From a virus (lineage: Duplodnaviria > Caudoviricetes): a DNA stretch of 64,000 bases. The DNA lies in IMG/VR virus record IMGVR_UViG_3300027863_001757, positions 1,412-65,411 of that record. One strand, written 5' to 3'. Both the position numbers and the translations under genes were made by a program. How positions within the stretch are numbered: position 1 is the first letter of the stretch; the number at the start of each line of letters is the position of its first letter. Under the pieces are notes generated by a model, which did not search any database, was not told the DNA's origin, and saw only the letters and a list, made by a program, of their open reading frames with translations. Below, one piece after another: positions 6,411-53,670 of the stretch.

Positions 6411-6528
6411 GCTTCACCTTTCCTTTGAGCACGATTCCTCTAGCAATGATCAGGAACACTTTGTTTCGAGGAAGCACTGGTCCTTTGCTCTTCGCTATCA
6501 GCTTTCTCTTGCCTGGTCTGGTTGCCAT
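6397..6528 (-). CDS. Small basic 43-aa protein (below ORF-track cutoff)
   Basis: Manual translation MATRPGKRKLIAKSKGPVLPRNKVFLIIARGIVLKGKVKRGSP*. AAGGAATAG precedes the ATG, and it fills the gap between two operon genes. Confidence 0.6.
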   Translation of the reverse strand: MATRPGKRKLIAKSKGPVLPRNKVFLIIARGIVLKGKVKRGSP

Positions 6529-6531
6529 TCG

Positions 6532-23121: not shown

Positions 23122-23580
23122 TCAAAGCCAGTATTGGAAACAGATCGTCATCTTCTCGATGGTGTTGTCGGAGCTTCCACCTTCGAGGTCGTCGTACTCA
23201 AGCGACTTCACCCACGCCCCGACGAGCGTCCATCGGCGGGTCTCGTTGCCCGCACGGTCGTAGCGGACGATGTCGATATCGCGCATATACTCTTCCGGCA
23301 GCGCGCCGACACCGGAGTTTACATCGGCCTGGATTCGGACCCAGTCGCGCGCGGACTCGTCTGAGCCGTCCGCAAGCACGCCCTTTTCGAGTGTGATGTC
23401 GCCGAATTTCATGCGGCCCGCGACCTTCTGGTCGAACATAGAGCCTGCCGGAGCGAACGCAACTTCCTCGAACTCGGTCTTCGGCTCCTGGCCTTTCCTG
23501 AATAGAGCCACATCAAACCCGTTCACCTCGATGGCGAACTGCCAGTTCTGATACAGGCTCTGGAGCATTGACACGTCCAT
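23122..23580 (-). CDS. Tail tube protein (T4 gp19-like)
   Basis: WQFAIEVNG...F...AGRMKFGDITLEKG...RDIDIV.YD.AG...RRW.L.GAW...LE.DDL.G...IEKMTI. Confidence 0.9.
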   Translation of the reverse strand: MDVSMLQSLYQNWQFAIEVNGFDVALFRKGQEPKTEFEEVAFAPAGSMFDQKVAGRMKFGDITLEKGVLADGSDESARDWVRIQADVNSGVGALPEEYMRDIDIVRYDRAGNETRRWTLVGAWVKSLEYDDLEGGSSDNTIEKMTICFQYWL

Positions 23581-28409: not shown

Positions 28410-29276
28410 TTAGGCGAGTATCCGAATCTTGGCGAGAATCTCGGGGCGGGTGACGCCCTGGCCGATCTCAGACCACACGAGCCAGCCGGTCTTGAACCGG
28501 GTCTTCTGCTCGATGGCCTCGGTATTGAGCGATTCGCGCACCGGCATCTTGCCGACTTCCTCGTCTGGAACAAGCAGTATCTCGTTCATTTCAGCGGACG
28601 CCGTGAGCAGAATGCCGCCTGTGCCGTAGTTCTTGATGACACCCTTGGTCCGCAGTTCCGCGCGGGTTTCCGGGTCGAGGTCCCAGTCGCGCATGTCATT
28701 GAACCGGCGACCGCGCATGACGATGTACTTGACTGACAGCTCCAGATCCTCGACGATAGAAATCGCCTCGTTCAAGGCGTCGTCCGTGAGCTTGCCGCCC
28801 GTGACCTCGATAGTGTTCGCGGCGGGCACTGAGGCTGAAATGACAGTGATCGTGCGCCTGTCCAGCTCCTTGCGAATCTGGTCGGCGGCTGATGTCTGGA
28901 TGTCCATAAGGGTGCCGATGTTGCCGTTTTTGAGGACCGAGACATCGACCATAGGTGTCGAGTGAATCCTGTGAGTCGGAAACTCTATCTCGTCCTGTCC
29001 GAGTTCCTGCTCGCGGGCTTCGCCCTCATTGCTGATCCAGTAAGCCTTGACCTTGGGCTTCTTCTGATAGATAGGGCGCTCGCCTTTGGGCAGCGTGTGC
29101 TGAGTCAGAAGGAGCGAAGTGATCTCCTTACGCTTTATCTCCTGCTCAATCGGCTCGGCAATTGCCGCCGCCAGCGCGCGCATTCCATCCGGAGATTCCA
29201 AAGCCTCGCTCATCAGGCGGGCCATGGCCTCCATGTATTCCTGGCTGTGAATGTTAACCTGAGTTGTTTCCAACAC
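28410..29276 (-). CDS. Major capsid protein (HK97 fold)
   Basis: 288 aa following protease/scaffold and decoration genes; ADQIRKELDRR..., GWLVWSEIGQGVTRPE C-terminal pattern. Confidence 0.8.
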   Translation of the reverse strand: MLETTQVNIHSQEYMEAMARLMSEALESPDGMRALAAAIAEPIEQEIKRKEITSLLLTQHTLPKGERPIYQKKPKVKAYWISNEGEAREQELGQDEIEFPTHRIHSTPMVDVSVLKNGNIGTLMDIQTSAADQIRKELDRRTITVISASVPAANTIEVTGGKLTDDALNEAISIVEDLELSVKYIVMRGRRFNDMRDWDLDPETRAELRTKGVIKNYGTGGILLTASAEMNEILLVPDEEVGKMPVRESLNTEAIEQKTRFKTGWLVWSEIGQGVTRPEILAKIRILA

Positions 29277-29754: not shown

Positions 29755-32700
29755 TTAGTTCTTGTTGCCTGCGCTCTGGCCGACACGCTCCCGGTATGCG
29801 GCCATGAAGCCCGTCTTGAGCTTGTCTTCCAGGCTTGTATTCTTGTCATCCACATCGAGCGGACGTACGCCCGCATCCGTGCGAAGCTGGCGGTCGGCCT
29901 GTGAGGAGCCGGGCTTGTCCTTGTCTTTGCCTTTATCCTCGCCTTCGCCCTTTCCGTCGGTGTCGGATTTCGAGCATTCGGGCTTTGCCTGCACTGCTCT
30001 GTCGTAAGCGGCCTCGGTCGCGGTGAACGCATCGTCGGAAAGCTCCGAAAGGCGGCCCAGTTCCTTTTCACGCTCCTCGTCGGAAGCGAATGTCATCCCA
30101 GCCTTTTCAAGCTTCGCGACAAGTTTCGCGGCACGGGACTTGTTTGCGGCTGCCTTGCTTTCCGCCTCAAGCTCCTGAACCTGTTTTTGAAGCTCCAATA
30201 CCTGGTTCTTGAGGTCTTTGTTTTCCGTCTCAAGCTCCTTTATTCGGGCCTTGTCGTCTGCCGGTGTGCCGCCTCCGCCAGCAGGCGCGTTCTTCTTCGC
30301 AGCTTCTTCACGCTGCTCGTCTGTCTCATGCTCTTTCTTGTCGTCTTCCACTGAGCTGCCTCCTGTGTCTGTGGGGTTGGTTTGCCTTGCCTCCTGTGAG
30401 CCGACCTGCGTAATTCGCGCGTTTTCATCAGCGCCTTTGCGGTCCAGCAGTCCAAGGCCGGTAAATGTAACACCATGTAAAATCTCGAAGACCGGCTTGC
30501 CCTGATAATCGCCTCCCTTGTATTTGCGGAGGTGAATGCAGTAGTCGTTCTTCGACGTCATCGTCTTGCCGCAGATAGAGCACTCCCCAGCCTCGTAATC
30601 ACACTCCATCGAGACCTGGCTGATGATGCCGCGTTTCATGAGCTTGTAAGCAAGCGCGGCGGTAGGGGTATCTTTCACATACAGCTCGCCCACGCACTCG
30701 ACCCGGCCGCCAGTCTCATCCTCAACGAACTCAGCGCCCACGATCCCGCCGACGATGTCGGTGAGATCCTGAGAGTGCTTAAGGTCTATCTTCTTGTTGA
30801 TCGCCGTAGTGTACCGTGCCGCCAACTCGTCGGCTGCGAAGTGGTCGCCGTTCTTATTGGTCCCCGCACGGCACATAATGAAGCTGAACTGTGGGTCACC
30901 CGCGTTTGGGTTGATGTCTATAGCGTCGGCTGAGAGCTGTGTAGACCCGGCAATGCATACCTCGACCGGAATGGACGTGTGACAGTTAGCGGGCAGCGAG
31001 GCGGCCGCAGCACTGGGCGCACCGCTGGATTTTGAGGAGATGAAGAGCAGCTCGCGGCCGGTCTTGCCCTCGCTTCCTTTGCCGAGAACGATGTTGTACT
31101 CCACATCCATTCCCCTGACGCGAACGTTGCCGAGGCGCTGTGAGAAGATATCGCGGATCTCCTTTTCCGTAGGGAACGCCTTGTCGCGGTAGGACATGAG
31201 GACAGTCCCATACTTACCACGAGCCTCAGTCGCAAGGCTCTCGATGAGCGAGCGTATGCTGTCGCGATCATAGTGCGTGCGTGACTGATAGCTCCTGCGG
31301 TTGTCGTCGAGGAGCGTCTTATCGGCCCAGCGGTTCATAAGTCCCTCGACAAAGTGCAGGGAGTACTCATAGTCGTTGTTCGAGAACTGGGTGATGTACG
31401 GTGGGTCGAGGTAAAGCACATCCGCGCCGAACTTGCGCACGGCTTCCACAGCGTCACCGTGGAACGCCTTGCACTCCTGGCCGTTGTCGAATACCAGCTT
31501 ATTGAGCTGGGCCGCGTAGCGTTTGAAGCTCTCGACCATGCTGGAGACCGGCAGGTTCACAAGCTGGTTCTCTTTTACACCGGCGTCTGATTCCAGGTCA
31601 GCCTTGAGATTGAGTTTCGAGCGATGGAACTGACCATATAGGCTTTTGGCTTTCACCGTATTACCGAGCGCGGCAAGCGCAAGGTCTTTCTTGTAACCGG
31701 GCAGCTTCTGGATATTCGCCCACACTTGATCGAGCCACGCGAGCACTTTCTTGGTGTAGTAGTAGCCGTGGAAGTTGTCGACGACGAATGTGCCTGCGTT
31801 CGAGTTCGGCGCGAGGACCTTCTCGATATCCTCGTCAGTCAAGGTCTCGTGCGAGTTTTCAACGACGGCACGGGCGACGTGGTAGGGATAGAGCAGCAGG
31901 TCGTTGGCTATGACCTTCAGGCCCTTGCGCTTGAAATGATACGCTACATTCGCGCCGCCGGAGAACGCGTCGAGGAGGGTCTTCGCGTCCTTCGGAACCT
32001 GCCGCTCTATCCAGCCGAGCATCATGTATTTATTGCCCATGAAGCCCGTAACGCGGACTGGGTCCATTCCTGCCTGACAGGAGAGCAAGTCCACGTCATC
32101 CGCGAGAGGCGCGTCGGCCAGTGCCGCCATGTTCTCCTCGATGCGTAGCTCAGCCTTGGATGCCTCGGGCTCGTGCCGCTTCACCCAATCCTGGGCTTTC
32201 TCCATAGTCCAGCCGTCGGGATTCTTCTCGGTTCCTTCGTCTTTGCTTAGGACATGCTTCTTGGCAAAGCGATACGCCTGCAGGACCATCGCTTTCGGAT
32301 CATGGCCTTCGGGGACCAGCTCTTTCTTCAGCCTGCCGATAATAATTGCGATACCGTCAACGCCGTCAAGGTCTTTGCGCCTGAAGCTATCCGGCTCGAA
32401 CTGCTCGGGATCGCGTACGCGGTAGCGGATCTCGTTTTCGGTCTCGTCCCACTCGGCCTGCGCCTGCATTTGCGAGCATGCTGGACACAGCCCCGCCGAT
32501 TGTTTCAACTTGCCCGACCGAGAGCATACGAACAGGCGCTCAATGGCCTGCGAGTTCTCGGACTGTCGGGAAGATATGTAATAGCGGTGCTGCTGCGAAC
32601 TGATCCGGCTTTCCATGCCGTTTGCTGAGATGATGTCTTTCATCTCGGCTTCGTTCGGATAAGCATGGTCGCGGTACGATATGAGCCAATTCGGAATGTG

Positions 32701-33639
32701 CTTCGCGTTGGCAAGAAACGTCGTGAAGAACTCGCCGGCGTTAGCTTTGGTGACAGTCTTGTGGTCTGTCTCATAATGGTGAGTTTTTGAGTCTCCTACG
32801 AGTGTAAGGCCGTCCCAGTAGGTCATGAGACCTTCGGTGAAGTGGTAAGCCTTCTCATAGTTGGTCGTCGAGAATTCGGTCGCGTAGGGAGGATCAAAGT
32901 AGGCGAGATCGACCTTTGCGTCCGCCAGCACGTCGTTTACATCCTTGCAGATTGCCTTACACTCTTTGCCGTTATCGAAGATGAGCGCGTTGATACGCGC
33001 CACATTGTTTAGGAAGCGCTCTTTGAATTCGTCCGGCGTGTCCTGCCGCTTGCCGTATTCGGTCGAAGAGGAAAAGTGCCCGAAACCGCCCTTGCCTGCA
33101 AGACATGCCTTGCCGAGAGCAAAGAGCGCAATGTCCTTCTTGTAGCCAGAAAGCGCATCGATATTTGCCCGGATGTTGTCGATGATAGTGTGGACACCAT
33201 CGGCGAAAAAGAGGCCCTTGAAGTTGTCCCTAACGAATGTGCCGGCCTTAGGATTGTCGGCTATGAGCGCATCAAGTTCTTCCTGGCTGATCCGGACGGA
33301 GTTATTTTCAATGATAGCCCTGGCGATATGATAGCTGTAGTGGAGTCTGTCGTTGGCAATGACCTTGAGGCCCTTGGTCTTGTACATATACGCCACGACC
33401 GACGAGCCGGAGAACGCGTCGAGGATCGAGCTTATGTCTTCCGGCGTATGCTTCCATATCCAGTCGACAAGCTTCTGCTTTGAACCTATGTAGTTAGTGA
33501 TGTATTTCGGACGCTCATCCGGTGGCAGTTCTTCCGTAACAAGCTCCGCCGCCTGGGCGAGCAGGTCGTCCAGGTGACGTGAAGCGTCTGTCTCAAGAAG
33601 AAAAGCCAGCCGATCAAGATCCGTGGCAAAAAGCTGCAT
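29755..33639 (-). CDS. Fusion: two N6-adenine DNA methyltransferase domains + prohead protease + scaffold coiled coil
   Basis: MTase 1: NYIGSK...DAFSGS...DPPY (32884). MTase 2: FMGNK...DAFSGG...DPPY (31397). Then NKNGDHF...DLKH...VSMEC...CSICG...CIHL...GADENA protease-like domain and an acidic/coiled-coil scaffold. One uninterrupted 1294-codon frame. Confidence 0.88.
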   Translation of the reverse strand: MQLFATDLDRLAFLLETDASRHLDDLLAQAAELVTEELPPDERPKYITNYIGSKQKLVDWIWKHTPEDISSILDAFSGSSVVAYMYKTKGLKVIANDRLHYSYHIARAIIENNSVRISQEELDALIADNPKAGTFVRDNFKGLFFADGVHTIIDNIRANIDALSGYKKDIALFALGKACLAGKGGFGHFSSSTEYGKRQDTPDEFKERFLNNVARINALIFDNGKECKAICKDVNDVLADAKVDLAYFDPPYATEFSTTNYEKAYHFTEGLMTYWDGLTLVGDSKTHHYETDHKTVTKANAGEFFTTFLANAKHIPNWLISYRDHAYPNEAEMKDIISANGMESRISSQQHRYYISSRQSENSQAIERLFVCSRSGKLKQSAGLCPACSQMQAQAEWDETENEIRYRVRDPEQFEPDSFRRKDLDGVDGIAIIIGRLKKELVPEGHDPKAMVLQAYRFAKKHVLSKDEGTEKNPDGWTMEKAQDWVKRHEPEASKAELRIEENMAALADAPLADDVDLLSCQAGMDPVRVTGFMGNKYMMLGWIERQVPKDAKTLLDAFSGGANVAYHFKRKGLKVIANDLLLYPYHVARAVVENSHETLTDEDIEKVLAPNSNAGTFVVDNFHGYYYTKKVLAWLDQVWANIQKLPGYKKDLALAALGNTVKAKSLYGQFHRSKLNLKADLESDAGVKENQLVNLPVSSMVESFKRYAAQLNKLVFDNGQECKAFHGDAVEAVRKFGADVLYLDPPYITQFSNNDYEYSLHFVEGLMNRWADKTLLDDNRRSYQSRTHYDRDSIRSLIESLATEARGKYGTVLMSYRDKAFPTEKEIRDIFSQRLGNVRVRGMDVEYNIVLGKGSEGKTGRELLFISSKSSGAPSAAAASLPANCHTSIPVEVCIAGSTQLSADAIDINPNAGDPQFSFIMCRAGTNKNGDHFAADELAARYTTAINKKIDLKHSQDLTDIVGGIVGAEFVEDETGGRVECVGELYVKDTPTAALAYKLMKRGIISQVSMECDYEAGECSICGKTMTSKNDYCIHLRKYKGGDYQGKPVFEILHGVTFTGLGLLDRKGADENARITQVGSQEARQTNPTDTGGSSVEDDKKEHETDEQREEAAKKNAPAGGGGTPADDKARIKELETENKDLKNQVLELQKQVQELEAESKAAANKSRAAKLVAKLEKAGMTFASDEEREKELGRLSELSDDAFTATEAAYDRAVQAKPECSKSDTDGKGEGEDKGKDKDKPGSSQADRQLRTDAGVRPLDVDDKNTSLEDKLKTGFMAAYRERVGQSAGNKN

Positions 33640-33855: not shown

Positions 33856-34533
33856 ATGAACGCAGCAGAGCATATCGTACAATCGTTCTTCTGGGAAGCC
33901 GATAGCCCGACGAAGAAGCCGCGCGGGCGCAGATACCTTACGATCTCAAACGTGATCGGCGGCGGTAATCGGGAGGTGGACGTGCTCGCCATCTCCGGGG
34001 ACGGCGCGGACAGGATCCGCGTCGAATGTGAGATTGCGGTCAATTGGCCGTTCACTTGCGAGGGAATAGAGGACCGCATCCGCTACAAGATGATCAATGA
34101 CAAGCATTCACGCAAAGCGGTAGAGGACATATTCGGTACCGACGACTACCGCAAGGTCTTTGTCGTCTGGAGCAGTCCCTTTGCCGAAGAACGCAGCCTG
34201 CCTGAAGACCTTCTCATAGAGCAGTGCGAGATGTGGTCGATCCAGGATTTGCTCCGAGACCTGATGTTTAGCATCGGCACCGCCAACTATCAGGATGATG
34301 TGCTGCGGCTGATGTCGATGATGTCGAGCATGCTTTCCCCAAACGCCGCATTGCGCGAGCTTGGCTGCAGCCGTGTATCTGCCGATGTATGCCAGGTAAC
34401 TGCTGCGACCTGCATTGATGCAGTCGCTCAACTCGGCAGGAAAGTCGCGGCTGACTCGGGCCACAAAACGGTATCGGCTCGACACATAAGGACCGCGCTG
34501 AACCAGATAAGTGAGCTCTGCAGAAAATGCTGA
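33856..34533 (+). CDS. PD-(D/E)XK-like nuclease fold fused to C-terminal histone fold
   Basis: REVDVLAI...IRVECE restriction-nuclease-like core; C-terminus LRELGCSRVSAD...AQLGRKVAADSGHKTVSARHIRTAL matches the histone-fold RVS/RKT loops. TATAAT at 33804-33809 upstream. Confidence 0.65.
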   Translation: MNAAEHIVQSFFWEADSPTKKPRGRRYLTISNVIGGGNREVDVLAISGDGADRIRVECEIAVNWPFTCEGIEDRIRYKMINDKHSRKAVEDIFGTDDYRKVFVVWSSPFAEERSLPEDLLIEQCEMWSIQDLLRDLMFSIGTANYQDDVLRLMSMMSSMLSPNAALRELGCSRVSADVCQVTAATCIDAVAQLGRKVAADSGHKTVSARHIRTALNQISELCRKC

Positions 34534-34554: not shown

Positions 34555-34890
34555 CTACCTGCTTGTCATTTGCTGAAGGATCTGTTTCGCGCATTGTTCC
34601 GCTGTGGCGAACATGTCGGTTTCCACTATCTCCCCGCGCATCCCATTATACGGTGACATCGTTGCCTGGTGATATTCGAGAAAGCCCTCAGGCAGCGACT
34701 TGATGTCGTTTTCTACCAACCGATTGATGACCCAGTCGGCGTCTTCAGCGAACTCTTCGTTTCCCGGCAGGTATTCCATCACGATATCAAGCCCAGGCCC
34801 GGGTCCCTGGACCCACACGCCGATTGGCTCGTAGTGCGGATCGATTTCACGGTCACGAACAGCATGCTCTATCATATACCTAAGCCGCAT
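34555..34890 (-). CDS. Small acidic hypothetical protein (second gene after MuF; candidate immunity)
   Basis: Start moved to MRLRYMIEH; overlaps the preceding gene. Confidence 0.65.
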   Translation of the reverse strand: MRLRYMIEHAVRDREIDPHYEPIGVWVQGPGPGLDIVMEYLPGNEEFAEDADWVINRLVENDIKSLPEGFLEYHQATMSPYNGMRGEIVETDMFATAEQCAKQILQQMTSR

Positions 34891-35362
34891 CCCATTCCTC
34901 CGCGATCCGAGTGTGCTCTTCGAGGAGATCGGCGTCGATCTGCTCGAACACAGCCTTGTTTTCAGATTTATATAGCTGCCAGTCTTCCCAGTCGGCAACC
35001 ATCTCGACATCCTGCGTAGGAAACAGCAGCTCTACATGAAACTTACGCCCACGATCATCCATCAAGTCGATAAGATACCCATCCTCTTGGCTCCAATCCA
35101 CGACCTTGATTGTGTGAGCATACTGCCAGCCGTTGTTATAGCCGGCTGACTTGAACAGCAGCCAGAGATCGGTCTTGGTCACACTGCCTACAGCATCAAA
35201 GTGCGGGGCGACGCGGGTGATCATATAGCTGTCTATAAGGCCAAAGCCGAGTGGTTCATCATTGCCTTCTCGCATCTCCATCCAGGAACCCTTTGTGTTG
35301 AACTCGTCAAAGAGTCTCTGCAGCCTCGCCTTTTCGTTTGCGATGAAATCTCTCATGATCAT
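34880..35362 (-). CDS. Acidic hypothetical protein directly after MuF (candidate immunity)
   Basis: 160 aa; ATG overlaps the MuF stop codon. Confidence 0.7.
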   Translation of the reverse strand: MIMRDFIANEKARLQRLFDEFNTKGSWMEMREGNDEPLGFGLIDSYMITRVAPHFDAVGSVTKTDLWLLFKSAGYNNGWQYAHTIKVVDWSQEDGYLIDLMDDRGRKFHVELLFPTQDVEMVADWEDWQLYKSENKAVFEQIDADLLEEHTRIAEEWDAA

Positions 35363-38300
35363 CTGCCTACTATTAGCTCTTCAACCTTGCGACCATCGGG
35401 CAAAGTAGATATGCCATGTTTTTTGAAGACATCCAGCACCTTGCTCTTTTCGGCATTGCTATGCACCACAATGCTATCCAGATTATCCAGGAGCGTGATA
35501 GAGTGTTTGAATATGGTCTCGTTGCTGGAGTTGCGCGAGAAGCTTTTCCACGTTGCCGGGTCGCTTCCACGATTGCTCGATACATAGTCGTCCTTGACCT
35601 TGCCAAAGGCGTCGTGATTGTAACTCACCGCATCCATCCGCCGCAGGAGCCGTTTTTTGTAGTAGAGACCAACATCTGTTGAATAAGCAGTCGGCGATTT
35701 CTTAATGCGGGTGAATACGTAGCTTGCGCCGCCGCTGTTCATATCGGACTCAGGTGACATTCCACCTGGCATGACACCCGCTCTGAGTTTCTCGACAGTA
35801 CTTATCATAGCGCCATTATTCTCAATTACCGTATCAAGAAACTCGCTTATGCTCTCACCGTTCGTGAGATGATGATACAGGCTGTAGCCTTTCATCTGCT
35901 TTTCGATGTCGGCATCTGATATATCGAAGCGATACTGATGCCTGTAACCTCCGGCGATCTTCGCGTCTCTGAAACCAAGCTGATACTCACCGATGGGATC
36001 ATACCCCGGCATTCTAGTGATGTCGGAAACACCCAGACGCTTTTCCCAGAAACCGCGCATTGCCTGGATGCGTTCTGTCTTCGTTGCGTTGCGCCCGTCC
36101 AGACCGGAGATCATGCGAGCATAGTCAGGCTCACGGTCGGCTTTCGTGACATAAGCCTGCTTTGTAAGATACATAATCTCAGCATCTTCGGCGTCGGCTA
36201 TATTTGTTTTCAGGCCGAGCTTTTCAATGTTGCCGAGCGCCCTGTCCAGGCTCTTTGCATCCGGCCTCTCATCAATGATAATCTCGAGTTCTCCGCGCTG
36301 CGCATAGTGGTTCTTCTCTGACCACGGCCGATAGACCGCCCTGACACCATCACCGAAATCCACTTCATACTGCTCCCCATCATTCATAGACCTGCCTCGA
36401 AACATCGAGTTGTTACCAACAGACTCTTTCTCGAGGGAAAGCTCGCCCTTTGTAAGCGTCCGCTTCTCCATAAGAACCTTGGTCTTGCGGACTGCGAAAT
36501 CTACATCCTTACTCTCAACTTTCTTTGGCAGGCTTTTCCGAAGATATGTCTCGAATTTCCCGGCAACGGTTTTTCTTTCCCTGGCGGCTTCCTGTGTTCT
36601 TTCTATCCAGTCGACGTAGGCTGTCGCCATCTCGCGCACATCCGGATCGTCGGATCTGGCAAGTTTCTTCAGCGCAGGAAGATGCTTGTTCAGCTTATCT
36701 ACTTTGGACTTGTTGTAGTTGCCATCCTGCGAATGATAGTTTACGGTCTTCACTGCGAGAAGGATATCATCAGCGAACTCGTCCTCAGCAAGCGGCTCAC
36801 CGACTTTGACGACGCTTACCTGACGACTGGATTTCCTGAGTGCGGGTAGGATTTTGGCTTCAGATTCGGGCCGAAGCTTCATCTTTACAACAGTGCGGGT
36901 CTTGCCTTTCACTGTCTCCGTGAAAACGAGGGCGTTCTGATCTTCAATATCAAATTCGTCTATTGGCAGAGATTTGCCCTGCCAGCCGAGAATGCGAGCC
37001 TCCTCAATAATCTGCTCCTCGGCTTTACCGATACGGACTACTGTTTGCGCTTCTGCGATATCCTCGAACTTGTAACCTTTCTTGCCGAGGATATCGGAGT
37101 AGAATGACTCGAAATCACTGCGCATGTTGTGCTTACGGGCAAGGGCCAGGTCGTAGAATGCCTTTTTCTTCAGTTCGTCGCCAGCGAACCTGCCCTCGAC
37201 GTATGGACGGATCAGGGCGAGGTAATCATCATCAGATATCTTCTCCACCTCGCGGATGTAGCGCAGTGTGACCGATGGATCGACCGTCACCTTGCCCTGC
37301 TTTGCCGCTCTGAAGAGAGTGTTGTAGAACGGCTCGCTCTCGCCGCAGGCTCCGTTGGGGTGGTAGTCGATGGAGAGCTTGTCCGACCCGAGAAACTTGA
37401 AAAGCTGAGCCTTATCGATACCGCAGACCTTGCCGTCTTTGGCCCGAAGGAACTGCTTGGAGTGCCCATCATGGTTGCTGATCAGCCAGTCGATGACATG
37501 CTCGCGCTGAACTTGCGCGATATCATCCGACGAAAGCTCAGTAATGTCGAAGCTGGAGAAGTCGGACTTTGCCGCCAGCCCACCGCGCCACCTCTGAATG
37601 GAACCTGCTCGGCCGTTGAGCTGGATCGTTCTGACTTCCATTGCATCCGGATCTATGAGCCTGCCGATCTTGTAGGCGGCTTCTTCTCCATGCGCGATGA
37701 AATCGTCAGACGACTTGCCGACCGGCTTGAAAAGCCACTTGTCGCCATTCTCGTCGAGCCAGAACTCCTTCTCATGCGCCCCGCCGACTTTGGCCTTGCT
37801 GACGTACTTGAACTTTTCCGGCTTCCCCTTCTCAGCCCACGCCGCATCCGCAGCGTCGAACTCGGAGGTCTTCTTCGCAAATGTGTTCGGCGTCGCGACT
37901 GTGACAGGCTGTGGGCCGACCTGTGGCTCTGATGTGGGGACTGCCTTCGGCTGTGCTGCCTTGCCGGACTTGCCCAGGTGCTTTTCGGCCCACTTTGCAT
38001 GCTTCGCTTCGATGCTCGCCTGCGCGGTAGATACCTTTGCCGGGTCGGTCTCCGTGAACAGGGTAACTAACTCGTCTTTCGACGACCATTGCCAATGCTT
38101 GATCTTCGTCTGCTTTGCAAGGTCCTTCAATTCCCCGGACTTCATCGCCGAAACCTGCTGCTGGAACGTGAGCTTTTTGACCGCGATCTCTGTCGCATGC
38201 TCCTGAAGCACCGACGTCGGCAACCCCGAGTCCTTCGCAAGTTCCGCTTCGGCGGCTTTCACTGAGTCGAGGAACGAGGAATACTGTGATGGAGAAGACG

Positions 38301-39939
38301 GCATCACTATCTGTGATGTGGCGTCCTTGAGAGCTTGCTCTGCTTTCTTAAGCGCCTCCTGTTTTGCTGCGTCCAGAGCCTGCTGCTTGGCATTCTCAGC
38401 CATCTGCTGACCAGCGGACTTTTCCAGGGCTTTGACGAGCTGCTCCTTGTTCTTCAAGGGTGGAATGCCATGCTTTTGTTTCGCGGCCATCAGGGCCTTA
38501 CCGGCAAGACCGGAGTGATCCACACCCGGCTCAAGACCGTCCAGCATATCGATGACTTCGCTCTTGGTGAGGTTCAGCGACACGCCGTGCTGCTTGGCCA
38601 TATTCTTGAGCTGGACCATAGTAAGACCGGAGAGATCGGACTGAGGCGCGGCGTTCTTTGCGGCTTCCTCCAGGGCTTTCGCCTGTTTGAGCACCGCCTG
38701 CTTTTCGGCAAGGAGCTTCGCCAGTTCGTCTTTACTCCGCAGCGCCGCGATGTTGTATTGCTTGATCTTCGCCTGCAGCGCAGTTCCAGACAGATCGGCA
38801 TGATGGATTCCCGGTTCTGCCTGGTCGAGAAGTTTGATGAAGTCGGACTTGGTGCGGGCAACGGCGACGCCATTCTGTTTCGCCAGCGTCTGAAGCTGCT
38901 TCACGGTGAGCGTGGAAAGGTCGCCAATCTCGCCTGACTCGAACGCGCCCTTGAGCTTCTTCTCTTCTTCGATCTTCTGTTTTGCCTGAAGATCAATTGC
39001 CTGCGGAGGAAGAATGCATGCATTCTGACCAGGTGCAGCAGTAGCGCCAAGTTCTCCCCCACAGATAACCAGCGGCCAAGCCGGTAAAGACTGACACCGG
39101 CAGTTGGGATGCGCCGGGATGTTGGGGAATTTGTCAATGTCGAAGACCTTACCGTCCAGACCGCCGCAGACCGGGCACATCCGCTCGTCTTCCATCGCCA
39201 TCCATTCGAGCTTCTGCACGCCGACCTGCTGGTGAAACTTGATGCGGCCCTGGTTGTGAGCACGCAGGACTTCGGTGCGGGCGATCATCTCCATGCGATA
39301 CTGCGCTTTGGAGAACACCTTGCTTCCCGCATTGCGGAATGATTCCTTGTCCTCGACGACCTTGCCAAGATCGCGGACGATGTCATCAGCGCCTTTACCT
39401 GTAGCGATACCGGAGAGGATGGTGCGTTTGATGCCGTCTGAAAGCTCCCGATGCACATCGCCGGCAAGCACCATGTTGTAATTGGCCATGAAGTCGAGCG
39501 CGTCGGTATCTATAAGGGTGAAAACCGATGTGGTGAGCTTGTCAATTCCGTCCGGCGCAAGGTCACGGTAAAACGGCATCTGAGCAGCCGCGAACTCTCC
39601 GATGCCGTGATATACGCCGGATCGAAACGACGCGCGGGAAGCCTTGCGGAACATCAGGGTCTGGTCCCTCTTGAGCGTCTTCGTCACTTCGCCTATCTCC
39701 GCGTCCAGCTTCTCCAAACCCTTCACTGCGGCGAGCTTGTTATCGGGCAGCGAACCGAGGCTTTTATAGGCTAGGAGCGCCTTCCGCACCTGTTCCTGCG
39801 CGGTCTTCAGAGACAGCGTGAGTTCATGGGCAACCTGCTCGGAGTAGAGGTCACGGGCAAGAAGGCTCCTCTGCGTTGCTTCTCGGATCGCCTGAGCTTG
39901 AGAAGTGGTATCGGCGATTGCGCACATCGATGCGTGCAT
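35359..39939 (-). CDS. MuF/SPP1 gp7-type minor head protein with long C-terminal extension (HeH-like repeats, HipA/PI3K-like kinase, probable ART-like domain)
   Basis: IARTE...EDERMCPVCGGLDG...PAHPNCRC MuF core; repeats LT..QLK.LAKQ.G...TK.E.I..L; GGAHEK...WLFKP...DWLISNHDGHSKQF...GIDK kinase motifs. Start set at ATG 39939 after the portal stop. Confidence 0.85.
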   Translation of the reverse strand: MHASMCAIADTTSQAQAIREATQRSLLARDLYSEQVAHELTLSLKTAQEQVRKALLAYKSLGSLPDNKLAAVKGLEKLDAEIGEVTKTLKRDQTLMFRKASRASFRSGVYHGIGEFAAAQMPFYRDLAPDGIDKLTTSVFTLIDTDALDFMANYNMVLAGDVHRELSDGIKRTILSGIATGKGADDIVRDLGKVVEDKESFRNAGSKVFSKAQYRMEMIARTEVLRAHNQGRIKFHQQVGVQKLEWMAMEDERMCPVCGGLDGKVFDIDKFPNIPAHPNCRCQSLPAWPLVICGGELGATAAPGQNACILPPQAIDLQAKQKIEEEKKLKGAFESGEIGDLSTLTVKQLQTLAKQNGVAVARTKSDFIKLLDQAEPGIHHADLSGTALQAKIKQYNIAALRSKDELAKLLAEKQAVLKQAKALEEAAKNAAPQSDLSGLTMVQLKNMAKQHGVSLNLTKSEVIDMLDGLEPGVDHSGLAGKALMAAKQKHGIPPLKNKEQLVKALEKSAGQQMAENAKQQALDAAKQEALKKAEQALKDATSQIVMPSSPSQYSSFLDSVKAAEAELAKDSGLPTSVLQEHATEIAVKKLTFQQQVSAMKSGELKDLAKQTKIKHWQWSSKDELVTLFTETDPAKVSTAQASIEAKHAKWAEKHLGKSGKAAQPKAVPTSEPQVGPQPVTVATPNTFAKKTSEFDAADAAWAEKGKPEKFKYVSKAKVGGAHEKEFWLDENGDKWLFKPVGKSSDDFIAHGEEAAYKIGRLIDPDAMEVRTIQLNGRAGSIQRWRGGLAAKSDFSSFDITELSSDDIAQVQREHVIDWLISNHDGHSKQFLRAKDGKVCGIDKAQLFKFLGSDKLSIDYHPNGACGESEPFYNTLFRAAKQGKVTVDPSVTLRYIREVEKISDDDYLALIRPYVEGRFAGDELKKKAFYDLALARKHNMRSDFESFYSDILGKKGYKFEDIAEAQTVVRIGKAEEQIIEEARILGWQGKSLPIDEFDIEDQNALVFTETVKGKTRTVVKMKLRPESEAKILPALRKSSRQVSVVKVGEPLAEDEFADDILLAVKTVNYHSQDGNYNKSKVDKLNKHLPALKKLARSDDPDVREMATAYVDWIERTQEAARERKTVAGKFETYLRKSLPKKVESKDVDFAVRKTKVLMEKRTLTKGELSLEKESVGNNSMFRGRSMNDGEQYEVDFGDGVRAVYRPWSEKNHYAQRGELEIIIDERPDAKSLDRALGNIEKLGLKTNIADAEDAEIMYLTKQAYVTKADREPDYARMISGLDGRNATKTERIQAMRGFWEKRLGVSDITRMPGYDPIGEYQLGFRDAKIAGGYRHQYRFDISDADIEKQMKGYSLYHHLTNGESISEFLDTVIENNGAMISTVEKLRAGVMPGGMSPESDMNSGGASYVFTRIKKSPTAYSTDVGLYYKKRLLRRMDAVSYNHDAFGKVKDDYVSSNRGSDPATWKSFSRNSSNETIFKHSITLLDNLDSIVVHSNAEKSKVLDVFKKHGISTLPDGRKVEELIVGR

Positions 39940-39949
39940 TATCTTTGCC

Positions 39950-41542
39950 TCAACCTCTCTTGCGTCCGAAGAAGCGGCAAGTCGGGGAATCGAAAGTCGT
40001 CTCTGCCTGCGTGACTCCACAGCGGTTGTGCTCCTCGCCAAAATAGCCACAAGAGTCGCACATCTCGCCGACACCGGCGCTGGAGTATAGGGCTGCCTGC
40101 GATTGTCCGTCCGGGCGATTCTTTGCCGGATCGAGGCCGAGCATCTGCTGCGCGCTTTCGATACTCATTATTCCTGCCACGACCATATCCACAATGGGCT
40201 TGACTTGCTTTTCGTCGAGGAGATCGACTGACTTGTCCTCATGCTGCCGGTTGGCCGTTTCAGTATCCGGGTCGAGGTCCATTTTGAGCTGCAGAGACGA
40301 CCGACTTATGAGCTTGCGGTCGTATAACTCGATGAGGAGCTTCTTGAAATCGACGGCGTCTGTGGGATCGAGGTCGTTGAAGACGAACTGGACACTCTTT
40401 CCCTGGTGTCCCGCAATCTCAAGCCAGTCGCTGTATATCCAGTCGAGGATGGTGCGCGCGGCATGCTTTATCTCCCGGATCATGATGAGCATCTTCTGCA
40501 TCGACACTGATGCTGTCGCGAAGTTGGGGCCATCGCCGGCAACCAGAGACCGCGAGAGGCCGAGCGCAACGACTATGTCTTCCTTTACATCCTTGACTTT
40601 GTCCTCAGTGTTGAGAACCTGTCCCTCAGTGCCGTGAGTTTCGACGGTCACATAGAAAGGCACGACGAGGCCGCTCTTCATGTCCATCTTGTTGACCATG
40701 TCGCGAGTCTGTTCTAGCATCTTCTGGTCAGGCATCACCATCTTCTGGCCGAACGCGCCGCCGACCTTAATCAGCCTGAATGGCGTGGCCCAGCGTTTGG
40801 CAATCGCCTTCTCCGCGCGGCGATAGTCACGAAGTAACTCAATGGAGTCGAATGCTGGGAGGACAAGCGAGTTACCGCGAGGAGAGAACGCTGGCGCATC
40901 CCACTTGAGATGCAGAGTCTGTTCGACGGGCAACTTCAACCCGTCACCGACGGTCGGGCTGTCTTCTGGGAACTGCTGTACCTCTACAAGCTGTCCCTGG
41001 GCATATTTCACCTTGATGGATACCGGGTTTACACAAGTGACTTCCTCAAAGTCCTTGCCGTCTTTGGTATATCGTTTGAATCCGACTGCGTCACCCTTTA
41101 CGAGAAGTTGCAGGATCATATCTTTCACGAACTCAGAGATACCGAGCCTGTCGGACAGATCGTTTGCCTCCTGCTTTACGGTCTCATCGTCGCTTGTTAT
41201 CCTTATCTCATCGCCCACGGCAAATGTTCGCCAGGAGTTGACACAGTTCTTGACCAGAGGCTCCTCGACATAGTACTCCCAGGCTTTTTTCGCGCGCTCT
41301 TCCCAGGTCTTTGGAATAGCGCAGTGATCGGGATTGATGTGGGCAAACACAGCCGAATCCAGCATGGCCGCTGTCGCCATGGGAGATATGACTATGCCTT
41401 GTGCCTGTGTATCGTGTTCGTCGGGTATGGCTGCCTGGCTGGAATGTTTTCTTGAGCGTGACTTTCGACTGCAGTTTTCCACATTGACCTCTATGCGCAA
41501 TTCTGTCGCACCTGCATAGCGCGCCAGGAGGCACACATCCAC
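39950..41542 (-). CDS. Portal protein
   Basis: Located between terminase and MuF; YYVEEPLVKNCVN...LLVKGDAV...PRGNSL..PA...IVVALG pattern. Start uncertain (41542 or GTG 41483). Confidence 0.8.
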   Translation of the reverse strand: MDVCLLARYAGATELRIEVNVENCSRKSRSRKHSSQAAIPDEHDTQAQGIVISPMATAAMLDSAVFAHINPDHCAIPKTWEERAKKAWEYYVEEPLVKNCVNSWRTFAVGDEIRITSDDETVKQEANDLSDRLGISEFVKDMILQLLVKGDAVGFKRYTKDGKDFEEVTCVNPVSIKVKYAQGQLVEVQQFPEDSPTVGDGLKLPVEQTLHLKWDAPAFSPRGNSLVLPAFDSIELLRDYRRAEKAIAKRWATPFRLIKVGGAFGQKMVMPDQKMLEQTRDMVNKMDMKSGLVVPFYVTVETHGTEGQVLNTEDKVKDVKEDIVVALGLSRSLVAGDGPNFATASVSMQKMLIMIREIKHAARTILDWIYSDWLEIAGHQGKSVQFVFNDLDPTDAVDFKKLLIELYDRKLISRSSLQLKMDLDPDTETANRQHEDKSVDLLDEKQVKPIVDMVVAGIMSIESAQQMLGLDPAKNRPDGQSQAALYSSAGVGEMCDSCGYFGEEHNRCGVTQAETTFDSPTCRFFGRKRG

Positions 41543-42424: not shown

Positions 42425-43951
42425 TCAAAAGAAGACTGGATCAGTCAGCACCGGGATGACGCAAACAGTCTCCTCGGTGATCTGATCCAGACTTCTCTGC
42501 TCTCGGACCAACATCGCGCAGCGCACGGCGTCGATGATGTGGTCGTTACCCTTGGAGTAGATCACGTTGCCGTTCGAGAGTGTGTAGGTATGCGTCGTAA
42601 GCTGGTCTTCTATCTCAAGATCATCGGCAGGCAATGCCATCTGCCTGCGCTGCAGCGCGCCGTTGATGAGGCTGGTCATCAGCTCCTTGGTGCGCTTCTT
42701 CACGTCCTGACCGTCGCGAACTGCGAGTGTGGTCATGCCACCGAAGTCGTATCCGTATAGTCTGCCTTCAAGCTGGATCTGCCTGTATTTGTCGAGCGTG
42801 AGCAGCTCCTGCACGACCGCCAGACCATTGCCGCCGTTGTCCACGCCTATGCCGACCGGCGTGAAGTACTTCTCCAGCAGAGAAATCGTCTGAGCTATGT
42901 GAGGGTAAGAGATGTGCTCCATGTGGATTCGCAGCACAAGCTTCAGAATAGAGCGCTCCCCGACCTCTATCTCCTGGAACACGACAATCTCGGTCGGATC
43001 GTTAGTGTAGCCAAGGTCGCCGCCTATCCAGAACATGCCGGTCTGGGGCATCAGGTTCAGAAGCATCTCCAGTCGGTCGTATGACTCCTCTTCTGTCGCA
43101 CAGTCGCGCATGTCCTCGCCACATATCGCAACCTTTAGGTACTCCGGCATCTCCTGGCGACAGAGATTCAGGTGCTCGATATTGAACGCACCATAGGAAG
43201 GCTTTCCGTGTTCGCCGGCGACTTCATGCTGCCAGCCTGCGGTGTCGTGCCCACCGTAGAACTCAAGAAGCTCGCGTTCGCGCTCCTCATTCCAGTCCGG
43301 GTTAATCCACGACGGCCACCTGAATACCCTGAACTGTGATGACATTGTCAGGCGGTAATAGGTGGTGTTCCGCAGGCCGTTGGGTGTGGAGTAGATGCGC
43401 AAGCGCCCCCCTGCCTTCAGGCACTGCCGAAGAGCCTTCCATGCCTTCTCCGTAAGCCACGCACCTTCATCGACCCACACACGCTCGACATGCAGCGACC
43501 TGAACGCGTCGCCGTAGACCCCAGCCGGTCGGAAGTAGAGCACCGCGCCGTTGGTGAACTCCAGCCTGAAGTAAGGCTTGCGGATTATCTTGGGCTTACC
43601 AAACTTTGTAAGGGCGACGCTCCTCATCAGTTCATCGTTGGATTCCAGTTGGAACTCTATCTCCTCGATCAGGGTGTCGAGGTGTCCCTGGTGCGGAGCA
43701 GCGATAAGTCCTTGGCCGCCGCGTGTGGTGAAGGCGAAGTGCATCGCATCTGTCGTGAGCACGCAACTCTTCCCGCAATCACGACCGTCGAGATGAATGA
43801 TATTACGCATCTCACACTTCAGGTCGTCAATCTGGTGCGGCCAATAGCCACGCGCGGAACCATCCCGATTGCGCAGATACTTCTCTCCCCACAACACCGG
43901 GTCCCTGAGCGACATCCCCAATCTTTCTTCTTCCGACGTTATCTCAACCAC
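42425..43951 (-). CDS. terL: Terminase large subunit
   Basis: GRDCGKS Walker A, RVWVDEG Walker B, YSTPNG motif III, GGDLG and DHIIDA RNase H-like nuclease motifs; GTG start behind GGAGGA. Confidence 0.9.
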   Translation of the reverse strand: MVEITSEEERLGMSLRDPVLWGEKYLRNRDGSARGYWPHQIDDLKCEMRNIIHLDGRDCGKSCVLTTDAMHFAFTTRGGQGLIAAPHQGHLDTLIEEIEFQLESNDELMRSVALTKFGKPKIIRKPYFRLEFTNGAVLYFRPAGVYGDAFRSLHVERVWVDEGAWLTEKAWKALRQCLKAGGRLRIYSTPNGLRNTTYYRLTMSSQFRVFRWPSWINPDWNEERERELLEFYGGHDTAGWQHEVAGEHGKPSYGAFNIEHLNLCRQEMPEYLKVAICGEDMRDCATEEESYDRLEMLLNLMPQTGMFWIGGDLGYTNDPTEIVVFQEIEVGERSILKLVLRIHMEHISYPHIAQTISLLEKYFTPVGIGVDNGGNGLAVVQELLTLDKYRQIQLEGRLYGYDFGGMTTLAVRDGQDVKKRTKELMTSLINGALQRRQMALPADDLEIEDQLTTHTYTLSNGNVIYSKGNDHIIDAVRCAMLVREQRSLDQITEETVCVIPVLTDPVFF

Positions 43952-44058
43952 GATTATTCCTCCGCATTTCCTTGCACATTCGAGGCAAGAACCCTTGACT
44001 TCACACGCGGTCCGAGTGATCAATGTGAACAACATACACAACCACTGGAGGTAGTGAA

Positions 44059-44454
44059 ATGACAGACAAGACACTGCACGAGGCTATTGAGGAACACATC
44101 GAGCACCTCAAGAGCCAGGGCAAGAGCGAGCGCACAATCTATACATACTCCAAGGACTTCGAGCAGGTCGAGGCATTCTTCAAGCCGGACAGGAAACTTC
44201 GCTCGATCCTCATCCCACACGTCGGGAGCTTCCTCAAGTCGGATACGCTCCTCAAAATGCGCGGCGACAAGGATCGGTCGGAGATCACGGTCAAGAAGAC
44301 CATCCGTGTCTTTCGCACGTTCCTTGTGTGGGCGAAGGAACAGGGCTACATCGACAAGCTCCCGCTGCCCAAGGACGTTCCGACAGGCCGCAGCCTCAAA
44401 GCACAACCGGAGGTGACCAGTGCCGAACCCGATCCGGATGCTGCAGCCGAGTAA
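44059..44454 (+). CDS. Stand-alone integrase N-terminal SAM-like (core-binding) domain protein
   Basis: AIEEHIEHLKSQGKSERTIYTYSKDF...FLVWAKEQGYI; no catalytic domain. Confidence 0.75.
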   Translation: MTDKTLHEAIEEHIEHLKSQGKSERTIYTYSKDFEQVEAFFKPDRKLRSILIPHVGSFLKSDTLLKMRGDKDRSEITVKKTIRVFRTFLVWAKEQGYIDKLPLPKDVPTGRSLKAQPEVTSAEPDPDAAAE

Positions 44455-45337
44455 CGATCTCGAACACGCGATAGACAACTTCGCGGTAAGGCTCCGGGCG
44501 CAAGGTCGCTCGGAGCTTACCATCTCCGCCTATACGCGTGACCTACGCTGCTTCGCCCGCGCACTGCCGGGCATAGATACTCATGACATCACACCAGCGA
44601 TGGTAGATGCGGCGATTACTGATCCCACGGTCACCTGTTCTGAGAACTGCGTGCCAAAATCGACTGCGACGATGTATCGGCTGAAGGCCGCTGTAAAATC
44701 GTTCTTCTCCTGGTGCGAAGAGAGCGGACTGACAAGCGGCAATCCTGCCAGATCGGTAAAGATGAAACGCCTCTCTCGGAAGCCTCCGAAATTCCTGAGC
44801 GAACCAGAGAAGCGCAGGCTCCTCAAGGAAGTCCGCGACCGTACAAGTCCACTTGCCCGCCGCGACCGGGTCATCTTCGAACTCTTCCTCGGGACCGGCA
44901 TACGCATAGCGGAACTTGTGAATCTCGACATCGATGACGTCGATCTCGACGGCAAGCACATATACATCACAGGCAAGGGTGGCATTCCACAGGCCAAATT
45001 CCTCAACTCATCCCTGCGGACACTTCTGCGCAGCTATCTCAAAGAGCGCCGACGCCTGGCAGATACCGAGGTTACCGCGCTATTCGTCTCGTCTCAAGGA
45101 ACGAGACTCTGCTGCAGGCAAATCGCCAAGCGACTTACCTACTGGCTCGCCAAGGCTGGAATCCAGAAGAACATCACGCCGCACGGACTGCGACATACGT
45201 TCGCGACGCACCTCTACACCGCCACCTCCGATCTGCTGCTCGTTAAGCGCGCCCTCATTCACCGCGACGTCTCCACCACTGAAATCTACACCCACGTTGC
45301 AGACGAACAACTTGAGGATGCACTGGAACGCATCTGA
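44420..45337 (+). CDS. XerC/XerD-like tyrosine recombinase
   Basis: RDRVIFELFLGTGIRIAEL, GKGG, TPHGLRHTFATHL, IH..VSTTEIYTH: R-K-H-R-H-Y catalytic set present. Confidence 0.92.
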   Translation: MPNPIRMLQPSNDLEHAIDNFAVRLRAQGRSELTISAYTRDLRCFARALPGIDTHDITPAMVDAAITDPTVTCSENCVPKSTATMYRLKAAVKSFFSWCEESGLTSGNPARSVKMKRLSRKPPKFLSEPEKRRLLKEVRDRTSPLARRDRVIFELFLGTGIRIAELVNLDIDDVDLDGKHIYITGKGGIPQAKFLNSSLRTLLRSYLKERRRLADTEVTALFVSSQGTRLCCRQIAKRLTYWLAKAGIQKNITPHGLRHTFATHLYTATSDLLLVKRALIHRDVSTTEIYTHVADEQLEDALERI

Positions 45338-46106: not shown

Positions 46107-47033
46107 TCATTTTGTGCCTGTCGCGGCCGTAAACAATGTATTTTGACCATCAATTATGGATAGCGGTTTTGCTGTGGTCGCTCCAAATGGGTCATCATCT
46201 GCGGGCACCACTTTGCCGCCGAACACTCGCTTGACCTCATGAATCTGCTTCACGGCTTCCGGTGATGAGCCAATCATCAGCTTCAGTTCGTCCATAGTGA
46301 ACTTCACCTTATCAGCCCATTTTGCGGGAACGACAACCGAGTCTTCGCGGACAAATACTACAATGTCCTCGATAATCGACGACCTAATGCCTGCGTAACC
46401 TCGGGTGGCAAGCGCGTGTTCCAACCTGTGCGCATGGTCGGATTGTGCCGTCGAGTTGCTGGACAATGCTTGCTGCAACTGATGTGCATTCCATGCATCG
46501 TCCCAGGTCTTCCGGTAAGCAGCGAAAGTCTGCTCGGACGGTGGTGCGTAAGACTTGACATTCGTCGTCCTTACAGCCTGCCTGAGAGCATCATGACCAA
46601 TATACCGGATCGCCCAGTTGTGAATGACGTTGAATCGCGCTCGGAGCGTATCAAATGTTGCATCATCGAGCCGACCGGTTTCGTGCGACTTACGGGCATT
46701 TTCCATCCGATGTCGCAGCCAGGCGTAGTATGATGCATCCAGCATCCGATAGACCGGCTCGCAGTCCAGTTCGTAGCCGAATCTGGGATCATGCTCCTCG
46801 AATGAATCTAGATCAATCGCAACCCAGAGGATATGATAATCCGGCACGACTTCAGCGGATGGATCAGCAGAACCTTGCGAAGCCATGATCTCGGTGACGA
46901 GTTCCTCCCTATGCTCGCGGACCAATCGCCGAATATCATCAGTGATAAGCCAGTCCGGTTCCAGCCTGAGCTTACTGTCCGGCTGTATGCTCGCCCTTAG
47001 CGCGTTCTTTGTCAGTATCTCAAGGTAAGCCAT
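46107..47033 (-). CDS. Hypothetical protein following primase (N-terminal TubC_N-like segment)
   Basis: Start MAYLEILTKN coupled to the primase stop (TGATG); LRLEP...IRRLVREHREELV pattern. Confidence 0.65.
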   Translation of the reverse strand: MAYLEILTKNALRASIQPDSKLRLEPDWLITDDIRRLVREHREELVTEIMASQGSADPSAEVVPDYHILWVAIDLDSFEEHDPRFGYELDCEPVYRMLDASYYAWLRHRMENARKSHETGRLDDATFDTLRARFNVIHNWAIRYIGHDALRQAVRTTNVKSYAPPSEQTFAAYRKTWDDAWNAHQLQQALSSNSTAQSDHAHRLEHALATRGYAGIRSSIIEDIVVFVREDSVVVPAKWADKVKFTMDELKLMIGSSPEAVKQIHEVKRVFGGKVVPADDDPFGATTAKPLSIIDGQNTLFTAATGTK

Positions 47034-53233: not shown

Positions 53234-53670
53234 GTATCCGCAAACCTCCGGTGGCAGCGCAGTAAATACTCCTGAACAAACCGGCACGCGCACTGCCGGT
53301 TGGAGCAGAAAAAGACAGGAATGCCGTAGTCAACGATTATCGAAAGCGCCGCGCCTGTAACCGAAGCCGGATGTGCCCCCGAGCGGTAATTGCCCGACAG
53401 CAGTTCCTCAAAGTCTGCCTCGACCACGATGCACGAACACAGATAGGTCTGAAGCTTCCTGAGCTCGCTGCGAAATCTGTCGCGTTCCCTGATGACTGTA
53501 TGCACGAAGTCCTCGGCGGTCTTCCTCTCAATCGCCACATCGTGCTCAAAACCGGCGAGCGAATAGTCCCCCGCCGGCAGAGCACGGCGCTCGATGAGGA
53601 ACCGCTCAGAAGGCAGCGAGTAAGGCTCCTGCTCTCGCGTGTCGACTACGATACTGACTTTCTCGGCCAT
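53140..53670 (-). CDS. ERCC4/XPF-domain nuclease
   Basis: IVVDTREQ...GDYS...VAIERKT..DF motif. Confidence 0.9.
   Translation of the reverse strand: MAEKVSIVVDTREQEPYSLPSERFLIERRALPAGDYSLAGFEHDVAIERKTAEDFVHTVIRERDRFRSELRKLQTYLCSCIVVEADFEELLSGNYRSGAHPASVTGAALSIIVDYGIPVFFCSNRQCACRFVQEYLLRCHRRFADTCQMQQPSTSEYGERSSESSIHPQTSPPDAS

Follow-up and report, generated by a model that had tools for sequence, protein, structure and literature searches.

Polyvalent proteins occur in phages and conjugative elements, and their delivery alongside the DNA has been predicted (Iyer, Burroughs, Anand, de Souza, and Aravind 2017, PMC5512222). The same work mentions a Rho-N/SAP-domain protein of Desulfovibrio, Alt of phage T4 as an ADP-ribosyltransferase (ART) carried in the head and injected with the DNA, and Gp0.7 of phage T7 as an early phage kinase with host translation factors as substrates (PMC5512222). 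Fusions of MuF head proteins to toxins, with immunity genes downstream, are established as well (PMC5576092). A related case is Bxa, a prophage ART that has a trafficking domain and two immunity proteins, the binding protein Bsi and the enzyme BAH (PMC11699363). The concept of a head-associated effector is, thus, already known from polyvalent proteins, MuF-effector fusions, and head-packaged Alt. Described here is a gene on the minus strand (35359..39939) of a 64,000-nucleotide stretch of viral DNA (Duplodnaviria, Caudoviricetes), which is herein called the window and corresponds to positions 1,412 to 65,411 of the 65.4-kb IMG/VR provirus record IMGVR_UViG_3300027863_001757. Its product joins a MuF domain, DNA-binding-type repeats, a kinase-like domain, a middle domain, and an ART-like C-terminal domain, and it is probably a virion-borne two-enzyme effector of the polyvalent type, whose ART would be held off by an immunity-like partner until delivery.

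The open frame spans 35359-40074 on the minus strand. The probable start is the ATG at 39939, a few bases downstream of a GAGG, which gives 1526 codons followed by a TGA stop at 35359-35361. This start is supported by the full-length homologues of the 1526-aa protein, whose length of about 1520 residues agrees with it. An initial annotation of the window, made from the letters alone, had proposed one gene of exactly this extent; frame, start, and homologue length bear it out, the portal gene lies on one side and the capsid genes on the other, and all motifs that it quoted are found in the protein where it had placed them. The MuF (SPP1 gp7) head-morphogenesis core, claimed there at about 39100-39450, is located at residues 169-283 (39091..39435, minus strand) and contains the cysteine motif CPVCGG...HPNCRC. 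It is recognized by Pfam Phage_Mu_F PF04233 (E 9e-17, 62.3 bits with a cut-off of 29.6) and by TIGR01641 (E 1.5e-19, 70.4 bits with a cut-off of 39.65). Hence, both marks of the MuF family are found, a hidden Markov model (HMM) score above the curated cut-off and a place next to the portal gene within the head module. No other part of the protein is named by Pfam, NCBIfam, or PHROGs; phrog_6577, of unknown function, spans residues 47-1374.

The atypical kinase domain comprises residues 700-965 (37045..37842, minus strand), with G720, K738, D817, N822, D824, and D842 as key residues; the motif GGAHEK is located at 719, WLFKP at 735, and NHDGHSKQ at 822. Residues 690-1185, which hold the kinase and the middle domain, were modeled with AlphaFold2 to a predicted local distance difference test (pLDDT) score of 91.4, and this model matched more than 500 kinases at E<=1e-3 in Foldseek. 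The closest structure in VIA-align is PI4KIIalpha (Z 15.9, root-mean-square deviation (rmsd) 3.7, 235 aligned residues including the helical C-lobe), followed by CtkA (Z 14.4, rmsd 3.4, 206 aligned, with the kinase model), Fam20 (Z 13.7), MavQ (12.9), actin-fragmin kinase (AFK; 10.9), and HipA (10.0). A bilobal protein-kinase–like fold of the PI4KII/CtkA/Fam20/HipA group is, thus, supported by the model. Conservation of single sites was counted here and below over about 150 cluster representatives that share 30-66% identity overall. Within these, K738 is kept in 125 of 125 sequences, D824 and D842 each in 125 of 126, G720 in 123 of 124, and N822 in 110 of 126. Going by the order of the motifs rather than by superposition, K738, D824, and D842 may be assigned as the β3 lysine, the catalytic-loop aspartate, and the DFG-like metal-binding aspartate. 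Model and fold comparison, hence, agree with the kinase that had been proposed at about 37090-37800, and its predicted catalytic residues are near-invariant. Sequence profiles reach it with difficulty: HipA_C of Pfam stays below its cut-off (E 0.017, 15.2 bits vs 30.5), and the family profile run against PDB sequences gave weak kinase matches alone (CtkA, E 0.09; AFK, E 0.2).

Relatives of the kinase are present in the mycobacteriophage proteins McProf gp54, Onyinye gp16, and Phrappuccino gp195 at 25-34% identity, the best of them being a stretch of Mycobacterium phage McProf gp54 (34% over 274 residues, E 3e-38). McProf gp54 and Onyinye gp16 end in a Pfam ADPrib_exo_Tox domain, an R-S-E–type ART. 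Like the protein described here, both are giant and associated with the capsid, and they combine a kinase of the same subfamily with a C-terminal ART; unlike it, their ART belongs to the R-S-E ADPrib_exo_Tox clade, and no match to the middle and C-terminal domains of the window protein was found in them. One kinase subfamily is, therefore, found in such giant proteins with either of two unrelated ART clades, which suggests that the two activities work together. In their database records, no kinase is annotated in McProf gp54 (2573-6127 of its locus) or Onyinye gp16 (2611-6630), and the three mycobacteriophage proteins are called minor capsid/ADP-ribosyltransferase fusions or hypothetical.

The C-terminal ART core comprises residues 1339-1526 (35362..35925, minus strand), with the motifs LYHHLT at 1354, NNGAMIS at 1374, SYVFTR at 1406, and SNETIF at 1472. 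A second model, of residues 1186-1526, reached a pLDDT of 94.2, and its match to DarT covers model positions 154-341, that is, 1339-1526 of the protein. The top eight Foldseek matches are all DarT (E 0.02-0.18), followed by OspC3/CopC and SopF, which are likewise NAD+ users. In the all-against-representatives comparison with VIA, DarT1 8baq leads (Z 10.9, rmsd 3.2, 156 aligned), then 7omu (10.5), 7omv (10.4), and 7yk3 (10.0), the DarT alignments spanning 145-156 residues at an rmsd of 3.2-3.5; the next structures other than DarT are SopF (Z 6.3) and Tpt1 (5.7). Domain-wise structure prediction, which the initial annotation had named as a check, has, thus, yielded both the kinase and the ART fold, and the annotation's likening of the C-terminal domain to H-Y-E/DarT-like ARTs agrees with DarT as the closest solved fold. 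Searches among predicted viral structures gave uncharacterized proteins of giant viruses, baculoviruses (ORF30/32), and iridoviruses as best matches. An "ORF28 family" of arthropod viruses related to DarT has been described (PMC9503650), to which the baculovirus and iridovirus matches may belong. In the ESM Atlas, the ART met with unnamed clusters and one weak lead to the OspC family. When the whole protein and two family profiles were compared with PDB sequences, the ART found no relative, and histones and low-complexity proteins came up by chance.

The key residues of the ART core, among them the predicted catalytic H1356, R1386, Y1407, and E1474, are almost invariant. H1356 is kept in 140 of 149 representatives, R1386 in 146 of 149, S1395 and D1399 in all 149, Y1407 in 144 of 148, R1411 in 146 of 148, and E1474 in all 147. 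The model places H1356 at the end of the first core strand, R1386 on a short helix within the loop that follows, Y1407 at the start of the next long strand, and E1474 at the start of a later one. The 15 collected DarT sequences have the same order, namely a histidine in the first motif, RR, an aromatic strand, and AEFLV, and the roles of the His, Arg-loop, aromatic-strand, and Glu elements of DarT have been described (PMC11543638). The likeness to DarT (PF14487; 7omv, 7omy, 8baq, 7yk3) begins with the closest solved fold and appears to extend to the His strand, Arg loop, aromatic strand, and Glu in the same order. Unlike DarT, which stands alone, the domain carries an additional sheet and helical bundle at its N terminus and is fused to a head protein; it has no detectable sequence relationship to DarT, and OrfA, described below, is predicted to bind it in place of a macrodomain/NADAR partner. 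On the basis of its model, it is regarded here as a new family of ARTs whose fold is DarT-like, not as a sequence member of DarT. By fold and conservation, the catalytic residues of both enzymes look intact.

Directly downstream follow two small genes on the same strand. orfA (34880..35362) encodes an acidic protein of 158-160 aa, and its start codon shares bases with the TGA stop of the big gene in the sequence ATGA; orfB (34555..34875, 106 aa) starts four bases after orfA and is a second conserved small gene. Of 80 loci from GTDB species genomes, about 75 have both genes directly after the big gene, and the same holds for close viral contigs; after iteration, orfA was also found in distant contigs, whose ART is 33% identical. 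The initial annotation had not remarked on this conserved partner. Neither protein has a match in Pfam or PHROGs, OrfA has none in the ESM Atlas, and no partner is hydrolase-like by Pfam. The net charge of the OrfA family ranges from -3 to -16, and its most conserved stretch is residues 70-83, with nearly invariant G76 and H81. A complex was predicted for OrfA with residues 700-1526, so that three domains were on offer to it. The interaction score ipSAE was 0.86 (0.88, 0.86, and 0.81 in the single runs), the best of three controls scoring 0.00. Among solved complexes, 58 of 80 reached the mark applied to this score, as against 2 of 110 mismatched pairs, counts that are rough here because our own alignments were used. 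The runs share at least 90% of their contacts, with a partner pLDDT of at least 87. Predicted contacts on the ART are formed by residues 1356-1361, 1391-1399, 1401-1404, 1409, 1442-1449, and 1469-1472; they coincide with the conserved motifs around the presumed NAD+ cleft and are mostly made by OrfA residues 70-83. OrfA is, thus, predicted to be an immunity-like inhibitor that plugs the ART active site. In this predicted role, it resembles DarG of the DarTG toxin-antitoxin systems, whose C-terminal part is likewise predicted to bind DarT and block it (PMC11543638).

The domain architecture is widespread. A word-indexed search gave more than 185 full-length homologues of 47-91% identity, labeled Armatimonadota, Verrucomicrobia, and others, the identity along them being even across the whole protein. 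An exhaustive HMMER search with residues 961-1526 gave 1119 clusters at 50% identity, 364 of them at E<=1e-30, and the matched part is nearly always C-terminal in proteins of 800-3200 residues. With so many full-length homologues and clusters, the layout is not due to chance. After iteration, kinase, middle domain, and ART occur together in 118 of the 120 representatives of at least 1000 aa, and the MuF domain is present as well in 106 of them. Hence, the cassette is fixed and not a shuffled toxin tip. Gene 15 of the Pseudanabaena phage Pan1 (3821-6601 of its locus), a 927-aa head morphogenesis protein of a cultured cyanophage, matches the window protein in two pieces within residues 75-1523, with 33% covered, and apparently holds the MuF domain and the C-terminal region; it could serve as an experimental handle.

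Within one sub-lineage of the family, whose protein is 59% identical to the ART of the window, prophage loci of about 17 kb that hold the gene are 96-97% identical between genomes. These genomes are labeled Ectothiorhodospira shaposhnikovii DSM 243, Desulfobulbus rhabdoformis DSM 8777, Desulfosarcina alkanivorans PL12, Desulfofustis glycolicus DSM 9705, and Desulfocarbo indianensis, isolates of different phyla or classes; all of these loci have about 62% G+C, and that of PL12 lies in a closed chromosome. Other near-identical pairs are a Zixibacteria metagenome-assembled genome (MAG) with a Desulfosarcinaceae MAG (99%) and a Nitrospiraceae MAG with Syntrophus buswellii (97% overall). An identity of 96-97% over 17 kb points to one temperate phage having crossed between phyla very recently and suggests an unusually wide host range, mis-binning being also possible for the MAGs. 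A search of the phage collection gave no near-identical DNA.

Between the MuF core and the kinase lie repeats of the HeH/SAP/Rho-N type (residues 339-630; 38050..38925, minus strand), a basic region with a net charge of +8 over residues 331-690. The repeat HMM finds strong copies at 339-376 and 434-471 and weaker ones at 383-412 (independent E-value (iE) 0.058) and from 599 (iE 0.014), whereas a unit at about 478-508 was recognized by eye only. Of the "about five" repeats that had been reported, therefore, two are clear, and the other three are degenerate. The assignment to HeH-type units is backed by weak matches to Pfam Rho_N (3.4e-4) and SAP (0.053) and by phrog_2724 at 593-630. The middle domain (residues 966-1185; 36385..37044, minus strand) is of α/β type and travels with the kinase and the ART; it gave no informative fold match, the match lists of the shared model 690-1185 being occupied by the kinase. 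The accessory part before the ART core (residues 1186-1338; 35926..36384, minus strand) forms a small β-sheet and a four-helix bundle in the model and gave generic helical-bundle matches only. The model boundary at residue 1185 may also split a small β-sheet.

The protein compares with polyvalent proteins in that unrelated effectors (ART, kinase, and HeH/Rho-N) and a MuF domain are united in one chain encoded among virion genes (PMC5512222); at least two unrelated effector domains in one polypeptide and a virion gene context, by which such proteins are recognized, are both present. It differs from them in three respects. The ARTs of polyvalent proteins are of H-Y-D type (Tox-ART-HYD2/N4-type), whereas the fold here is DarT-like with an invariant Glu. 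Their kinases are without a C-terminal subdomain, whereas the kinase here aligns to PI4KIIalpha with the helical C-lobe included. Furthermore, the kinase–middle–ART block is fixed rather than shuffled and is followed by two small partner genes. Both chemistries of T4 Alt and T7 Gp0.7 would, by analogy, be delivered here in a single polypeptide, although the protein families are different. Gp0.7 itself is expressed after entry of the T7 DNA and is not injected.

In the proposed sequence of events, the MuF domain would place the protein in the procapsid beside the portal, as its family suggests, and the HeH repeats would hold it on the DNA. In the producing cell, OrfA would keep the ART off by its most conserved loop, which is predicted to insert into the NAD+/substrate cleft. 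The protein would then exit the capsid with the DNA and lose OrfA as it is threaded through the tail and unfolds. Once in the new host, kinase and ART would modify their targets in the first minutes of infection, by which the payload may reprogram the host or disable its defenses. In view of the DarT-like fold, the Arg that is conserved in the NAD-binding loop, and the repeats of DNA-binding type, the likeliest target of the ART would be nucleic acid itself or the proteins that handle the incoming DNA, a last step that is held with low confidence. If the ART acts on nucleic acid, this would be a phage-side use of DarT-like chemistry. A more far-reaching version, in which a phage-delivered nucleic-acid ART of DarT type attacks host DNA or its replication together with a co-delivered kinase and is silenced in the producer by a new family of cleft-plugging inhibitors, is unlikely. 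If true, a bacterial anti-phage chemistry would be turned on the host by a phage, and the payload, with the neighboring giant methyltransferase, would help explain the near-identical prophages across phyla.

Several points weigh against the proposed delivery of two enzymes. Packaging and ejection are extrapolated from MuF/SPP1 gp7 and from polyvalent proteins (PMC5512222). The nearest kinase folds include the lipid kinases PI4KIIalpha and MavQ, and, with lipid and protein kinases side by side, the substrate of the kinase may be of either class. For the ART, Pfam DarT (PF14487) fails to match the provirus even with E-values up to 10 allowed, and hhalign against an alignment of DarT from 15 genomes was insignificant in all modes (probability 1.2%), with only the stretch NETIFK/QAEFLV aligned. 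A looser local alignment pairs the aromatic strand of DarT with GLYY (1424-1427) instead of SYVFTR; because of this alternative register, the H-R-Y-E mapping is not fixed residue by residue. The charge of the ART core, which could hint at nucleic-acid binding, is not consistently basic across the family, and a Macro or NADAR reversal enzyme was not matched in the provirus. Finally, the score of the OrfA complex is the model's own confidence and was obtained from our own alignments.

The two small downstream genes and the predicted position of OrfA over the ART cleft also agree with another reading, in which the protein is a MuF-type polymorphic toxin, released at lysis or borne by the particle, that kills competitors, with OrfA and OrfB as immunity for the lysogen and its kin. 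The precedents are the established MuF-toxin fusions with downstream immunity genes (PMC5576092) and Bxa with Bsi and BAH (PMC11699363); as in these, small genes come after a prophage ART, and the predicted blocking of the active site by OrfA parallels that of Bxa by Bsi. However, the cargo of Bxa comes from a variable polymorphic set, whereas a variable C-terminal toxin on a conserved stem was not found here, the same triad being present in 118 of the 120 long relatives and the full-length identity being even across the protein. No hydrolase-like partner is seen by Pfam, and no receptor-binding or translocation domain was seen in the Pfam scan of the 1526-aa protein. Moreover, the overlap of the orfA start with the stop of the big gene in a late head operon fits protection at the time of assembly better than standing immunity of a lysogen. 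A toxin against competitors is, thus, unlikely.

A DarT-like fold and DNA-binding repeats in one polypeptide might also act on the phage itself, that is, the enzymes might modify its own DNA or head proteins at packaging or entry, and ADP-ribosylation of bases would be an anti-restriction mark in cis, comparable to methylation by P1 DarB. The 1294-aa D12-class methyltransferase fusion in the same head operon agrees with this, and the near-identical prophages across phyla would fit strong anti-restriction equipment. The predicted cleft-blocking inhibitor in the producing cell is, however, hard to square with modification before or during packaging. In addition, modification of DNA by DarT blocks replication (PMC11543638) and would harm the phage; the provirus search gave no Macro or NADAR reversal enzyme. 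Such self-directed modification is quite unlikely. That a long head protein retains the two domains without catalytic activity, as structural or scaffolding leftovers, is hardly credible: neither reaches a Pfam cut-off (HipA_C at 15.2 vs 30.5 bits; no ART family), but the predicted catalytic residues are nearly invariant among representatives of just 30-66% identity, and the predicted binding site of the conserved partner is precisely the ART cleft.

The delivered two-enzyme effector, thus, accounts for the locus best, and its significance lies in the moment of action, since injected phage proteins act when an infection is most vulnerable and few of them have been studied. The cassette is present in more than 1000 protein clusters from many bacterial phyla, and neither enzyme matches a curated family. 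No paper on the cassette, its ART family, or its partners was found, and none of these is in Pfam; members of the family may be part of the census of PMC5512222. The proposal is directly testable by means of the fixed kinase–ART pairing with two ART types, the predicted inhibitor, and the relatives in cultured Desulfosarcina, Syntrophus, and Ectothiorhodospira.

The surrounding genes on the minus strand are ordered as large terminase (42425-44074), upstream of the portal gene (39950-41542; phrog_2739, 2.8e-64), which is itself directly upstream of the MuF gene, followed by orfA and orfB, the methyltransferase (29755-33639), after the two small genes, the major head protein (28410-29276), the tail sheath (23580-25427), and the tape measure protein (18734-22216). 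Together, these genes form the structural module of a temperate phage of myovirus type. A 225-aa open reading frame on the opposite strand (33856-34533, plus) between orfB and the methyltransferase gene has no Pfam or PHROG match and no tblastn match in nine related viral or phage loci; an inserted moron or a non-gene is possible. The 1294-aa methyltransferase, whose gene lies inside the head operon with the MuF cassette on one side and the major head gene on the other, consists of an N-terminal D12-class N6-adenine domain and a long phrog_27806 part. DarB of phage P1 is packaged in the capsid, and a D12 methyltransferase fusion in a head operon recalls it. Further upstream, a tyrosine integrase gene (44420-45337, plus strand) adjoins the large terminase gene on the opposite strand, an 894-aa protein (47033-49717, minus) contains an NrS-1–type primase-polymerase helix-bundle domain, and a RecD2-like helicase of 1191 aa (49718-53293, minus) is split by an intein with a LAGLIDADG homing-endonuclease domain.

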